64,000 nt of DNA from Mustelus asterias (lineage: Eukaryota): the NCBI RefSeq assembly GCF_964213995.1, contig NC_135822.1, forward strand, positions 53,134,001 through 53,198,000, written 5' to 3'. A program made the position numbers and the translations under genes. The stretch's first letter is position 1. Each line of letters opens with the position of its first letter. Positions 55,891-64,000 of this stretch are shown here, one piece after another. The notes below the pieces were generated by a model. That model saw only the letters and a list, made by a program, of their open reading frames with translations, searched no databases and had not been told where the DNA came from.

Positions 55891-57044
55891 GATAAGTGGG
55901 CAAGTTCATGACAGATGCAATATAATGTGAATAAAAGTGAGGTTATGCACTTCGGTCGCAATACTAGGGAGATAGATTGTTATTTGAATCTTATAAATTG
56001 AGAGGGGTGGATAGTCACCGAGATCTGGGTGATTGGGTGCATCAGTCGCTGAAAGTAGGCACGCAGGTGCACGCAATAAAAAAACCAAATTACATTTTGG
56101 CCTTCATTAAGAGATAAGGTAAGTATAAGATTGTTTCACTGTAATTGTACAGGGCCTTGGTGTTGCCGCACCTGGAAATTCATGTTGCAGTTTTGATATC
56201 CTTCTCTGAGGAAGGATGTCCTTGCTATAGAGGAAGGTCAGCAAAGGTTTACCAGGCTGATTTATTTGATGGCAGGTTTGCCAAATGAGAAACTATGACA
56301 GTTAGGATGATATCCATTGGAGCTTAGAAGAGTGAGAGGGGATCTCATAAAAACTGACAACATTCTAATAGGCTTAGAGAGGGTAGATTCATAAAGAATG
56401 ACCCCGAAAGTGGTGTCATCCAGAACTAAGGGTCATAATTTGTGGTTTAGGGATAAACCTTTTTAGGGTTGAGGTGAGGTGAAATTAGTTCACCCACAGG
56501 GTTTTAAATCGATGGAATTCACGACCTCAGAAAGTAATTGAGGTCAAAATCTTGTGTGATTTCAAGAAGAAATTAGGTATAGCTGTTGGGGCTAACGGGA
56601 TCAAGCAACATCGGGGTAAGGCGGGACCAAGATATTGAATTCGATGTTCAGCGATGCTAAAATGGTATGGTGGAGTGGCCTCAAAAGGCCTAATGACCTC
56701 AAGTTTCTATGTTTGTATCTATTAAATTGTATGTCTCTATTTACTTTAGTGTGTGTGTAGGTTTCTGTGTGTGCGGGTTAGCATGTGTGTGTGCATTTAT
56801 TTTTACATCTCCATTTCTGTGTATATTTGTGTGCACGTATTTCATTGTTCGCAAATTCGATTTTTTGTATGCTTATATTGCAGTGTATCTATTCGAGCAT
56901 TGCTCTATTCACGCGTGTGTCTGCCTGTGTGATTGCATATCTGTCTGTGTGTATAAGTGTGTGTGTGTGTGTGTGTGCGTTTGTGCGTGTGTGCATGTGT
57001 TTGTGTATTTGTAAATCCAATCTCGCAGGTTATTAAAGCGGTAA

Positions 57045-57281
57045 ATGCGTTTCCTGTTCTGCAGGTTGCCTCTGTGTCTCTTTCTGTTCGTTCCAGCTGA
57101 CAGTACAATTATTCTGAGGGAGTGGCAGGGACATATCACGTCTTCCGGGTATCCTCGAGGATGTCCAAGTAATGGATCCGAACACTGGCACATGACTGTT
57201 CCCAGTGATTATGGTGTCATCATTTCATTCACTAATATTGATATTAAACCATCAACTGACTGCGTCATTGATAACATTCAG
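57045..57281 (+). CDS. C1r/C1s/MASP-family gene: signal peptide and CUB1 first-half exon
   Basis: LPLCLFLFVPADSTIILREWQGHITSSGYPRGCPSN..W..TVPSDYGVIISFTNIDIKPSTDCVIDNIQ|GT. Starts either at a phase-2 acceptor (57064) or at ATG 57045. The phase-0 end matches C1s ..DSVQ|. Confidence 0.8.
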
Positions 57282-57831
57282 GTAAAACATTTCTTTCTTT
57301 CTATCTAGGGTTTTTTTGCTATTATTTAGTGTCACATGTAGGCTTACATTAACACTGCAATGAAGTTACTGTGAAAATCCCCTAGTCGCCAGACTCCGGC
57401 GCCTCTTCTGGGACACGAATGTGCAAATTAGCATGTCCAATGTACCTAACCAGCACGTCTTTCGGACTGTGGGAGGAAACCGGAGCACCTGGAGGAAACC
57501 CACGCAGACACGGGGAGAACGTGCAGACTCCAGACAGACACTCACCCGAGGCTGGAATCGAATCCGGGTCCTTGGCCCTATCTATCTATCTGTCTGACTT
57601 TCTCTTTCCTTTCTATCTGTTATGCTAAATACCGAGCCTCCCCTATTCCGAAAAAAGCGAAGATCTCTATCCATATATTTGTTGCTTTATACAATAGAAA
57701 GGTGGAATCGAGTGATGAACAATTCATTAATCTGCTACACCGTGCTCTTGCTATTTATCAGCTCGAATACAGCGAGAAACAATAAATGTACAATGTCATT
57801 TTATTCTTTGTGTGATACCCCAACCCCACAG

Positions 57832-58009
57832 ATAGATTCTGAAGAAGCCACTTATCCCCCAATCTGTGGCACCAGCAGACATTATGAGAAAAGCTTCCAA
57901 TTTCCACAAGAGTACTACACTGCTGGAAACTGGATGACAGTCATCTTGAACTCCGATTGTTCCAAAAAGCAATTCTACACTGGATTTTCTGCTAATTATT
58001 CAGCATTTG
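57832..58009 (+). CDS. CUB1 second-half exon
   Basis: AG|IDSEEATYPPICG..GNWMTVILNSDCS..YTGFSANYSAF-G|GT, open, phase 1. Confidence 0.85.
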
Positions 58010-58384
58010 GTACGAGTTACAAAACATTATATAATTTGCCGTGCCCAGCAAGTCTATATTATGCACAACCAGCCCATCCCCGTGTATATACTGTCATAAG
58101 CGGTGTCCCAGAATGCTTGTTTTTTAAAAAATATATTTTTACGGGATATGAGCATTATCGTGATTGTGAGTATTTTCTGTATTGCCCTTGGTAACATCGT
58201 TGTGGGTTTCTGAACTGCAGTGATAAGTGTACATGCACAGACAATGCTATTAAGGAGAGAGATGAAGGATCTTGACCCATCAATTTCTTTATATTTTATA
58301 TACATTCTCCCTTGTGCTGAATCAGTTCGGTCATTTGTTTTTCGAGTCCTGAGGTCAACCAATTTCCTTCACCACAGAATAGAA

Positions 58385-61175
58385 AAAACAAACAACAAAG
58401 AAAATTACAGCACAGGAACAGACCCTTAGGGCCTCCAAGACTGCACTGACCATGCTCCCGACTTAACTATAACCCTCTACCCTTCCGGGGAACATATCCC
58501 TCTATTCCCATCCTATTCACGTATTTGTCAAGACGCCCCTTGAAAGTCATTACTGTATCCACTTCCACTACCTTCCCGAGAAACGAGTTCCAGGCACCCA
58601 CCATCCTCTCTGTTAAAAAGCCTGCCTCGTACATCTCCTTTAAACCTTGCCCCTCGCACCATAAACTTATGCCCGCCAGTAATTGACTCTTCCACCCTGG
58701 GAAAAAGCTTCTGACTATCCACTCAGTCGATGCTTCTCATAATCGTGTAAATTTCTACCAGTTCGCCCCTCAACCTCCGTCGTTCCAGTGAGAATAAACC
58801 AGTTTCTCCAACCTCTCATAGCTAATGCGCTCCATACCAGGCAACATCCTGGTAAATCTTTTCTGTACCCTCTCCAAAGCTTCCACATCCTTCTGGTAGT
58901 GTGGCGACCAGAATTGAACACTATATTCCAAGTGCAGCCCCACTAAGGGTCTATAAAACTGCAATATGACTTGCCAATTTTTAAACTCAGTGCCCCGGCC
59001 GATGAAGGCAAGTATGTCGTATGCTTTCTTGACTACCTTCTCCAATTGCATTGCCACTTTCAGTGACCTGTGTACCTGCACACCCTGATCCCTTTGCCTA
59101 TCAATACTATTAAGGGTTCTGCCATTTACTGTATATTTCGTATCTGTATTAGACCTTCCAAAATGCATAACTCACATTTGTCCAGATTAAACTCCAACTG
59201 CCATCTCTCCACCCAAGTCTCCAACTGATCTATATCCTGCCGTATCCTCTGGAGGTCCTCATTGCTATCCACAAATCCATGAACCTTTGCGTCATCCGCA
59301 AACATACTAATCAAACCAGTTACATTTTCCTCCAAATCATTTATATATATATTACAAACAGCAAAGGTCCCAGCACTGATCCCTGAGGAATGCCACTTAT
59401 TACAACCCTCCATTCAGAAAAGTACCCTTCCACTGCTACCCTCTGTCTTCTTTGACCGAGCCAGTTTTGTATCCACCTTGCCAGCTCACCTCTGATCCCA
59501 CGCAACTTCACCTTCTGCACCAGTCTGCCACAAGGGACCTTGTCAAAGGCCTTACTGAAGTCCATGTAGACAACATCCACTGCCCTACCCTCATCAATCA
59601 TCTTTGTCACTTCCTCGAAAAACTCGATCAAGTTCGTGAGGCACGACCTTCCCTTCACAAAACCATATTGCCTCTCACTAATACGTCCACTTATTTCCAA
59701 GTGGGAATAAATCCTGTCTCGAAGAATCCTCTACAATAATTTCCCTACCATTGAAGTGAGGCTCACTGGCCTGTAATTACCTGGATCATTCTTGCTACCC
59801 TTCTTAAACAAAGAAACAACTTTGGCTATTCTCCAATCTTCTGGGACCTCCCCTGTAGCCAGTGAGGATACAAATATTTTTCTCAAGGCCCCAGCAATTT
59901 CCTCCTTTGCCTCTCTCAGTATTCTGGGGTATATCCCATCAGGCCCTGAGGACTTGTCTACCTTAATGTTTCTCAAGAACCCCAATATCTCCTCCTTTTT
60001 GATCACAACATAACTCAAACTATCTACACACCCTTCCCAAGACTCATCATCCACCAAGTCCTTCTCTTTGGTGAACACTGACGCAAAGTACTCATTTAAT
60101 ACCTCACCCATTTCCTCTGGCTCCACGTATAGATTCCCTCCCTTGTCCTTGAGTGGGCCAAACCTCTCCCTGGCTACCCTCTTGCTCTTTATATATGTAT
60201 AAAATGCCTTGGGATTTTCCTTAATCCTGCTGGCCAATGCTTTCTCGTTACCCCTTTTAGCCCTCCTTACTCCTTGCTTAAGTTTCTTTCTACTTTCCTT
60301 GTATTCCACACTTGCTTCATGTGTTCCCAGCCTCCGAGCTTTGACAAATGCTTCCTTTTTCTCTTTCACCAGGCTCACAATATCTCTCGTTATCCAAGGT
60401 TCCCAAAACCTGCCATATTCATCCTTACAGGAATCTACCGGTCTGGAATCCCCTATCAACTTACACATGAAAGCCTCCCACCTGCCAGATGTTGATTTGC
60501 CCTCAAACATCTGCCCCCAATCTACATTCTTCAGTTCCTGCCGAATATTTGTTGTAATTAGCCTTCCCCCAATTTAGCACCTTAACTTGAGGACTACATT
60601 TATCTTTATCCATCAGAACCTTAAAGCTTACTAAATTGTGGTCACTGTTCCCGAACTGCTCCCCTGCTGAAACATCGACTACCTGGCCGGGCTCATTCCC
60701 CAATACCAGGTCCAGTGTGGCCCCTTCCCTAGTTGGACTATCTACATACTGCTTCAAGAAGCCCTTCTGGATGCTCCTTACAAACTCTGCCCCATCCATG
60801 CCCCTGGCACTAAGCGAGTCCCAGTCAATATAGGGGAAGTTAACATCTCCCACCACAACAACACTGTTACTTTTACACCTTGCCAAAAGCTGTCTACATA
60901 TCTCTTCCTCTTTCTCCCACTGGCAGTTGGGTGGCCTATTGTAAACCCCCAACATTGTGACTACACACTTTCTATTCCTGAGCTCCACCCATATTGCCTC
61001 GCTGTACGAGCCCTCCGAGGTGTCCTCCCGCAGTACAGCTGTGATGTTCTCCTTAACCAATAATGAAACTCCCCCACCCCCTTTACATCACCCTCTATCC
61101 CGCCTGAAACATCTGTATCCTGGAATGTTAAGCTGCCAACCCTGTCCTTCCCTTAACCAAGTCTCTGTAATGGCA
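58385..61175 (-). mobile_element. CR1 ORF2, frameshifted, intronic
   Basis: GDVNFPYIDW, SDHN, NYRPVSLTS, DFSKAFDKVP, PQGSVLGP, FADD. Confidence 0.93.
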
Positions 61176-62155
61176 ACTACGTCTAGAATCTCAACTTATC
61201 ATCATTTTATGCAGCTAAATATATTTTCTGTACGTGCCTGGTTGAACAGTAACAATCACATAGATCGATCTTTGTTCCTGATGCCCCAAAGCAGAATACG
61301 CTTCCCCATGTGCAAATTATCAGATTCATGTACCCGCAAAAAGAAAACAACCTCCTTTTATAGTGCTACCCAGCCTTCTGTTACTGGAGCTAAGAACCTA
61401 AACATCTACAATATTTTCAAAGGTGTAGTCAATCGGGACTCCTTAATTGATTATTTTTCCACCATCTCAGGAGCCTCTAAATCAGGCGAGAGAAACGAAA
61501 GTCAAACTCAAATCTTGCACGAATCATGTTGTATTTGGAGCGTAACTTATTACTCTAAGTGTTGCCTTATAAAGATTGATTGAATCCAAAACTCTGTAAA
61601 GAGCTCCAGATGCGCCGAAATAAAGTTTTCGACATGCTGGATCCATGCAGAGTGTCCTGAGTATGGTGTGTCCGCGTGTTCTGGAAACCAAACCCGCGCA
61701 GTTTCTTTGGTGTATTTTGCAACGAGGTTCAATACAAGTTCAAGGGACTTGTGCTACATCTCGATTGATGAATGTCACATTGAAAGGTAACATGTCTATT
61801 TGCTATGTTTTCACCGATAGTGAAATGCGCAAATGGAACACCAATCCTTTGAGATATTGTATTTAAGTTTTGTCCAGGTGTTCTGACTGTGCTGATAAAT
61901 GCACTGTTCTCAAAATGCACTGGCAAAAAAGACCACAGGATTCAGTGGAAAAATTCGCAAAGGACACCACGGAAACATAAATAAATTTAATTAATTCAAC
62001 AAAAGAAAGATTATGACAACTAATTGGATAGTTTTTGTGAGCTCAAATCTGGATATAATTTGTTAAATTTCCACGGGTTTGTCTGCACCTCTCTACGGAG
62101 AAAACATGTCTTCTCCATGAAAGTCTGACACGGTTTATGTTCCTTCATCCTTCAG

Positions 62156-62268
62156 TTAAGCATTGTTCTGATGATATTCTGGAGCACGGCATTATTGAGC
62201 CACAGAAAAGCGAGTTTGATTTTAAAGATTGGGTGCAAGCGAGCTGTGAGCTGGGATATCAACTTTAT
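62156..62268 (+). CDS. CCP1 (sushi) first-half exon of the same gene
   Basis: TTCAG|(V)KHCSDDILEHGIIEPQKSEFDFKDWVQASCELGYQLY|GTAAGT. Phases 1/0 as for the split CCP1 of C1r/C1s/MASP; in frame with the CUB1 exon. Confidence 0.85.
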
Positions 62269-63288
62269 GTAAGTTGACTAAATTTATTTTGCTTCATTTG
62301 GCAGAAATTGCAACAGCCATCATTGCTGTTAATTTTGTGGCATGGTCGGTGCAGGCTTGGAGGGCCGACGAGCTTGTTCCAGTGTTGTAATGTTCTTTGA
62401 TCTTTGTTCAATAATGCCGTGCTCCAGAATATCATCAGAACAAAGTTTGCTTCTGTACTCACTTTCGCAGCTCTTTACCGGGACATGTTGATGCCTGTCT
62501 GAATCAATGCCTGTCTGACTTTACCATGTTTTCGCGACCGCAAACGGACCCGACAAAATGGTAAAATCGGGCCCTCTATCATCCTGGCATTTATTAATAT
62601 TTTTCTGGGCAAGGAAGTTGGTAAATCTTATACAGGGCACAACGTATACCTCAGATGTGGAATTTAGTTAAATTCCTGGCAGCACACAATAGGGAAGATG
62701 TGCATGCATTGGGGATAGTGCAGCAGAGGTTTACAGGAACGATTCCAGGTGTGAGAAAGTTCAATTGTGAGGATATTTTGACGAGGTCGGGATTAATTTA
62801 CTGTAGAGAAGATGTCAAGAGGGTTATTTGATAGAGGTACTCACGCTCATAGGAGTCAGCAAAGAGTAGCGAATGAAAAACTGTTGCCATTCTTGAGGTG
62901 ATCGAGAACGAGGTGGGTGCAGATTTAAAGTGATTTGCAGAAAAAGCAAATGTGAGGTGAGAATAATGTTTTATTAAACATCCAATGCTCTGGGAATGGA
63001 ATCCATTTCAGGGAAGGTTGAGTTTGGTTTAGTGAAGGTATTCAAAAGGGTATTAGAATGTTCTTTACTGAAAGTCCATGGTACATGGGGAAAATGCAGG
63101 GAAATAGCATGACGTGATACTACTCACTTAGCGAACATAGCTTGGCAGGCAGGGCCATTCTTCAGCGTCATAACAGTCACGTGAACATGTTATTAATGTG
63201 CCAGGGCAGCCGATTTGTCTTTGCTGTGGAATTCTCCATGTTCCTTTTTCATTAATTCTTCCGACAACAGTTTACAGATTCAGATTTG

Positions 63289-63759: not shown

Positions 63760-64000
63760 TTTATTATTAGTGTCACATGTAGGTTTACATTAACACTGCA
63801 ATAAAGTTGCTGTGAAAATCCCCCAGTCACCACACTCTAGCCCCTGTGGGTACACTGAGGGGCAACTTCAGCATGGCAAATGCACATAAACAGCACCGCG
63901 TTGGACTATGGCAGGAAACTGGAGCACCTGAAGGAAACCCACACAGACACAGGGAAAACATACAAACTCCACACAAACAGTGACCCAAGTTGGGAATCAA
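63760..64000 (-). mobile_element. V-SINE with Rex1-like tail (also 57320-57580)
   Basis: V-domain plus GCAGTGTTAATGTAA..GTGACACTAATAA. Confidence 0.8.

Follow-up and report, generated by a model that had tools for sequence, protein, structure and literature searches.

A probable duplicated C1s pseudogene of the shark Mustelus asterias and its probable past as a shortened gene

The window analysed here, a stretch of 64,000 nucleotides of the Mustelus asterias genome (contig NC_135822.1, here C22, positions 53134001-53198000 of assembly G000), carries near its right end part of a gene of the complement C1r/C1s/MASP family, which proved to be a copy of C1s. One assembly was examined; the window contains no N by letter count and was extended by 320 kb, giving 384 kb searched, with window numbering continued beyond 64000. 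Three open exons lie on the forward strand: CUB1a (57065-57281, phase 2 to 0), which also encodes the rest of the signal peptide and ends at a GT donor, CUB1b (57832-58009, phase 0 to 1) and CCP1a, the first half of CCP1 (62156-62268, phase 1 to 0). As the initial annotation had proposed, CUB1b joins CCP1a in frame (..YSAF-V-KHC). An in-frame ATG followed by six further codons (MRFLFCR, 57045-57064, forward strand) precedes CUB1a inside an acceptor tract and may or may not serve as the start. The partner exon CCP1b is missing from the intron that begins at 62269 and runs past the end of the window at 64000 on the same strand, and the gene continues past the window with CCP2a (65920-66039, L006:1920-2039) and CCP2b (67176-67253, L006:3176-3253), both on the forward strand, the latter with no protease exon after it. 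The rightward extension suggested earlier thus recovered both CCP2 exons and, within 384 kb, neither CCP1b nor a protease exon. A Pfam scan found a CUB domain in exon 1 (E 1e-5), a weak Sushi match in exon 3 (E 0.005, below the cut-off) and no match for the CUB1b exon scanned alone. Profile hidden Markov models (HMMs) built from ten elasmobranch C1s scored CUB1a, CUB1b and CCP1a at 67, 77 and 50 bits, and recovered five of the ten C1s exons in the 384 kb, at 33-77 bits; with half of its exons, the window copy does not have the C1s architecture CUB1-EGF-CUB2-CCP1-CCP2-SP (SP, serine protease).

Within this genome, the window copy is most closely related to a gene of contig C24 (P0269) with CUB1a, CUB1b, EGF, CUB2a, CUB2b, CCP1a, CCP1b, CCP2a and CCP2b exons and a single-exon protease, in which the catalytic motifs TAAH and GDSGG are intact. 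Compared with solved structures, this protease is closest to C1s (E 7e-55), followed by MASP-2 (2e-44) and C1r (4e-42), and public records label the gene and its shark relatives as C1s. Exon by exon, the window copy matches the C24 gene in length and phase with no gap. An alignment of 232 of its residues gave identities of 48-54% to ten elasmobranch C1s and of 23-36% to eight other family sequences. In a tree of these sequences, from which C1RL, haptoglobin and human sequences were left out, the window copy occupies a basal position in the shark C1s group, with a long branch (0.63) and weak support for its exact place (53-74). By sequence and exon structure, the window copy belongs to the elasmobranch C1s clade, with whose members (the C24 gene, Sphyrna C1s1, P0270, and Squalus C1s, P0031) it shares exon lengths, phases and tree grouping; it differs from them in lacking EGF, CUB2, CCP1b, the protease and the start exon, in a broken donor and in the loss of the E45 and Y52 equivalents. 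The assignment to the C1r/C1s/MASP family made earlier is therefore sharpened to C1s. By contrast, the proposed link to C1RL finds no support in these identities, in an alignment that contained no C1RL. Synteny with the ancestral C1r/C1s locus was uninformative: calsyntenin and three Eph genes occur on C22, but 9-47 Mb away.

The absence of EGF and CUB2 exons, stated in the initial annotation, was borne out by three approaches. With profile HMMs, the EGF, CUB2b, CCP1b and protease exons reached at most 2 bits over the 384 kb, which is the noise level, and the best CUB2a match (12 bits) was CUB1a itself. EGF, CUB2a, CUB2b, CCP1b and the protease exon were likewise not found by tblastn around the gene. 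Forward DNA alignment of the missing exons gave z values of at most 2.0 in 25 of 25 tests, compared with z 14-42 for the five kept exons. No second C1s-type CUB2a was found genome-wide, the next match after C24 being 45% identical and located on C3. A serine protease exon with the His/Asp/Ser triad was not found near the gene, and none lies on that part of C22 among the best genome-search candidates; in the C24 paralogue the protease exon follows CCP2b after about 0.6 kb. Alignment of the intron after CCP2b with that of the paralogue gave a marginal z of 4.1. The CUB1b-CCP1a intron, where the EGF and CUB2 exons would lie, measures 4146 nt and contains the roughly 2.8 kb long interspersed element (LINE) noted earlier, a fragment at 58373-61183 on the minus strand whose frames read as endonuclease and reverse transcriptase and which we take to be of the CR1 type. 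A weak similarity to the paralogue's CUB2b exon was observed at 57588-57702 on the minus strand. Its score of 45 was reached by 0 and 2 of 1000 shuffles and by none of 152 control windows; the match is gapped, has no protein-level support and was chosen after about 50 tests. It is a possible inverted and strongly decayed CUB2b remnant, which may mark the rearrangement that removed CUB2, or may be chance.

The beginning of the gene is less clear than the initial annotation supposed: its reading of exon 1 as CUB1a holds, but the ATG at 57045 falls in a stretch corresponding to the paralogue's acceptor tract, and comparison with the paralogue places the beginning of the exon at 57065, in phase 2. 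The likely start exon of the paralogue (ATGTG|GT) is separate and lies 2.7 kb upstream of its CUB1a. No homologue of that exon was found in positions 1-57064, where the DNA consists mostly of repeats, and from the sequence the start codon of the window copy is uncertain. At the other end, CCP2a is followed by AT at the donor position where the paralogue has GT; read-through ends in ..GNDEKHAT*, and the sole stop-free in-frame cryptic donor near CCP2a (66007) deletes the second cysteine of CCP2a. Because the EGF-CUB2 block runs from phase 1 to phase 1, its loss leaves the frame intact. Loss of CCP1b breaks it, since this exon runs from phase 0 to phase 1, and the CUB1-CCP1a-CCP2a frame stops nine codons into CCP2a. 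Six splice paths were translated and yield products of 130-204 amino acids, none of which contains a whole CCP; the path that joins exon 1, CUB1b and CCP2a is in frame and gives a read-through product of 184 amino acids. The CCP fold relies on pairing of both first-half cysteines with two from the second half, which leaves free cysteines in any product with half a CCP. Any present-day protein, as predicted from these frames, would likely consist of CUB1 with a half-CCP tail and unpaired cysteines, misfolded and functionless. It should also be noted that the first 41 nt of CCP1a (62158-62198) recur as a near-perfect inverted copy at 62408-62448 on the minus strand, an arrangement present in runs X21, X22 and X24. 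The predicted hairpin between the two (-126.6 kcal/mol, z -7.4) loops out the CCP1a donor and would favour skipping of CCP1a.

Reads from runs without an RNA label were aligned to 62090-62335, 246 nt around CCP1a. In run X23, one contig of 173 nt (depth 5.6) joins exon 1 (57281) to CCP1a (62156) and CCP1a to CCP2a, out of frame; it skips CUB1b and contains no EGF, CUB2 or CCP1b. Runs X21 and X22 (DNA, possibly from the source sample) show no differences from the assembly over the 246 nt. The same locus is represented by an NCBI model, P0192 (XP_078094684.1, 'complement C1s-1 subcomponent-like'), an automatic prediction of 136 amino acids that begins, with no signal peptide, at an internal methionine (57192), is out of frame where it ends in CCP2a and forms a one-member cluster. 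P0192 carries the CUB1b-CCP1a and CCP1a-CCP2a joints, and nothing in its name points to the missing exons. The 58009-62156 joint for which transcript support had been sought is thus present in the gene model and not in the one spliced contig, which uses 57281-62156 instead.

With regard to C1q binding, E45, Y52, D53, D98 and S100 are described as calcium- or C1q-binding residues of CUB1, mutation of E45 or Y52 in human C1s as strongly impairing C1q binding, and the dimer interface as head-to-tail (PMC4222235). In the alignment, and in human C1s numbering, the window copy has E45K and Y52I in CUB1a while D53 and, in CUB1b, D98 and S100 are kept; two residues have become cysteines (Y17C and, in CUB1b, F99C), and CUB1b further shows N101K and E102K. 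As the copy is without EGF, the dimer interface is gone. With the equivalents of E45 and Y52 lost, it is unlikely to sit in the C1 complex, which agrees with the earlier proposal that this family member acts outside C1.

The locus bears marks of a duplicated, unprocessed pseudogene: introns are kept, an intact parent exists on C24 and disabling lesions are present. We consider it probable that the window copy is a transcribed, unprocessed C1s pseudogene with a past as a shortened gene. The working CUB-CCP-(CCP-SP) protein envisaged in the initial annotation is not supported for this genome, as the protease and CCP1b are missing, the CCP2a donor is broken and no whole CCP remains. That annotation would have regarded a locus with disrupted downstream exons and no expression as a simple pseudogene; the downstream disruption is largely there, but the locus is spliced. 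Several observations weigh against calling it a pseudogene. Within 232 codons there is no stop and no indel, all 11 invariant cysteines and tryptophans are kept, and 9 of 10 splice sites are canonical. When neutral evolution was simulated to the same divergence, the probability of no stop was 0.03-0.04 and that of no Cys/Trp loss 0.007-0.045. The pairwise ratio of nonsynonymous to synonymous substitution (dN/dS) to C24 is 0.44 (bootstrap 0.29-0.64), a value in which both branches are mixed. In addition, a spliced form of the locus is seen in X23, although the RNA support amounts to one contig in one run of unrecorded kind; a single 200-N gap lies at 141957, 75 kb downstream; and the lesions may be confined to the haplotype assembled here. 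The absence of stops and indels and the retention of cysteines and tryptophans speak against old decay and fit recent death, which is why we favour a shortened gene that worked until a recent loss of function. Judged from their frames and residues, the kept exons probably evolved under constraint for the greater part of their existence.

An old, long-dead duplicate, with frames open by luck and exons lost at random, is in our view unlikely. The window copy has changed 24 of the 89 positions that are invariant among the ten elasmobranch C1s, 17 of them in CUB1, compared with 1-4 of about 91 in eight sharks; for the remaining two sequences, which diverge most, the counts are 13 of 102 and 10 of 59. 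The proportion in the window copy matches that of a plainly dead exon, an orphan C1s-type protease exon on scaffold C73 (4083348-4084161, minus strand, L042) with 25 of 83 invariant positions changed and a similarly deep, long branch. Retention of the splice sites alone is also compatible with 0.14 neutral substitutions per site (P 0.24). However, the joint probability of no stop and no Cys/Trp loss under neutrality was at most 0.003 in six settings of 600 runs each. The C73 exon, moreover, has three stops, two frameshifts, a 14-codon insertion and His to Gln and Ser to Ala replacements, that is, 5-6 lesions in about 247 codons as against 0 in 232 in the window copy (P 0.02-0.04), and EGF and CUB2 leave at most a faint trace whereas the kept exons are clean. 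The C73 exon may have been the 3' half of this duplicate before becoming separated from it; intron homology gave no signal linking it to the window copy, and no C1s exons were found in the 146 kb upstream of it on its strand. Two further explanations keep a working product. One is a secreted, protease-less mini-protein made of a signal, CUB1 and a short tail (for example the 184-residue form), acting in binding or as a decoy with a target other than C1q and bearing a loose likeness to MAp19 and MAp44. It would account for the open frames and kept cysteines and tryptophans, and exon 1, CUB1b and CCP2a do join in frame; the ATG at 57045 would supply a signal-like start, the hairpin would favour CCP1a skipping and the new cysteines Y17C and F99C could pair. 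With its 30+113+30 shape, the X23 contig could be one side of a splice bubble that has CUB1b on its other side, and X23 contains 0.42 of the words of 57040-58020, close to the sum of the 0.35 expected from two exons and the roughly 0.07 found in small-share runs. Nevertheless, every path retains a half CCP with unpaired cysteine, there is no EGF and hence no dimer interface, the changed invariant sites are concentrated in CUB1, and the NCBI model has no signal peptide. No close relative or orthologue was found by two word-based searches, a weak negative as these also missed known shark C1s, nor by phmmer, which among the best 150 of 282 matches gave high identity only to the locus's own model; the ESM Atlas returned generic CUB/sushi clusters only. 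Such a mini-protein thus appears improbable. The other, a working CUB1-CCP1-CCP2-protease gene in this animal whose missing exons are hidden by assembly error or heterozygosity, would fit the in-frame CUB1b-CCP1a joint, which P0192 shares, the presence of both CCP2 exons, the 200-N gap and the orphan protease exon on C73. It is very hard to reconcile with a CCP1b missing in the gap-free sequence as well as in the spliced contig, a broken CCP2a donor, a C73 exon that is decayed and has lost its catalytic His and Ser, a paralogue protease exon only about 0.6 kb past CCP2b, and the agreement of X21 and X22 with the assembly over the 246 nt, and we regard it as highly improbable.

Returning to the pseudogene with a past as a shortened gene, the history we propose would begin with an early duplication of C1s in elasmobranchs, followed by loss of the phase-1 EGF-CUB2 block with the frame kept. 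The copy would then have persisted for a time as a CUB1-CCP1-CCP2 gene, possibly still with the protease, that evolved fast but under constraint and had given up C1q binding, and would recently have died through loss of CCP1b, the donor change and probably loss of the start exon. If the C73 exon was severed from it, the later gene may have been a protease-less stand-alone regulator. More tentatively, the locus could represent an old second elasmobranch C1s, devoid of EGF, CUB2 and C1q-binding residues, that worked as CUB1-CCP1-CCP2 with or without protease outside C1, would parallel mammalian C1RL independently, and is recently dead here and intact in other sharks. Other sharks may have a working orthologue, and the searches described above recovered none. 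The CUB-CCP-CCP-SP architecture first proposed may likewise hold for the gene as it once was or as it exists in other sharks.

Short family members do not seem rare in sharks. C1RL has the architecture CUB-CCP-SP, and its likeness to the window copy lies in the lack of EGF and CUB2. Haptoglobin consists of one or more CCPs and an inactive protease domain, without CUB; as an identity for the window copy, which has CUB1 and no SP, it was rejected. C1RL is described as proteolytically active, with prohaptoglobin and pro-C1s among its substrates (PMC7526369), whereas the window copy has neither a whole CCP nor a protease and stands nearest to C1s. MAp19 and MAp44, described as protease-less splice forms of MASP2 and MASP1 that retain CUB1-EGF (PMC7982787), are also protease-less pieces of the family, but the window copy is a separate C1s-derived locus without EGF. 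In hammerhead, a protease-less MASP2 transcript is reported (PMC6795676). A chondrichthyan 'C1rL' with CUB-CCP-CCP-SP is reported from Stegostoma tigrinum (PMC11312191); it has the architecture that the initial annotation proposed, already in print for a shark. It is a candidate orthologue of the window locus, or may instead belong with two tandem C1r/C1s-like genes observed on contig C2791 (L033-L036), which have relatives without CUB2 in Rhincodon and Heterodontus and the second of which lacks CCP1 and has TSASC and GDGGG where the catalytic motifs would be. In public models the two genes are merged into one, and by our reading of their sequences the Rhincodon and Heterodontus models are CUB-EGF-CCP-CCP-SP. 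No published description of the window locus was found in a literature search of incomplete coverage, which makes this a weak negative. As it stands, the locus is most likely an ordinary duplicated pseudogene that already bears an automatic C1s-like label, and it cautions against taking short shark C1r/C1s models for primitive or new architectures. Should an intact orthologue exist in other sharks, short proteins like C1RL would have arisen a second time, here from C1s, and such a gene would reveal what CUB and CCP modules do when no longer tied to C1q.

Other family members and neighbouring features were also observed. A different member of the family, which at a guess is MASP2-like, is represented on C22 at 33286515-33302945 by CUB1a, CUB1b and EGF exons; no single-exon protease is nearby among the best genome-search candidates, which would fit the protease-less MASP2 reported from hammerhead (PMC6795676). 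On contig C3954 (22022-22791, minus strand, L053), an inactive-looking family protease exon (GDRGA) has a possible frameshift near its start and is presumably haptoglobin. An intronless kringle-plus-protease stretch with an in-frame stop at 61.80 Mb of C22 (L039), which we assume to be HGF/MST1-like, is likely a processed pseudogene. About 50 kb downstream of the gene (C22, ~53.248-53.255 Mb, L011) is an endogenous-retrovirus-like element with gag, protease-reverse transcriptase-RNase H and env-type frames. At a distance of 39 kb from the C73 protease exon, and on the opposite strand, there is a V-set exon to which a J-like end is fused. Within the window, positions 23584-50072 contain a cluster of T-cell-receptor V-like segments, at least seven in number (minus strand, six; plus strand, one), which we take to resemble TRBV30, and a further V-like match occurs near position 2400. 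Several of the segments are broken, and several end in YYCAWS or YYCTWS before a CACAGTG-type signal.

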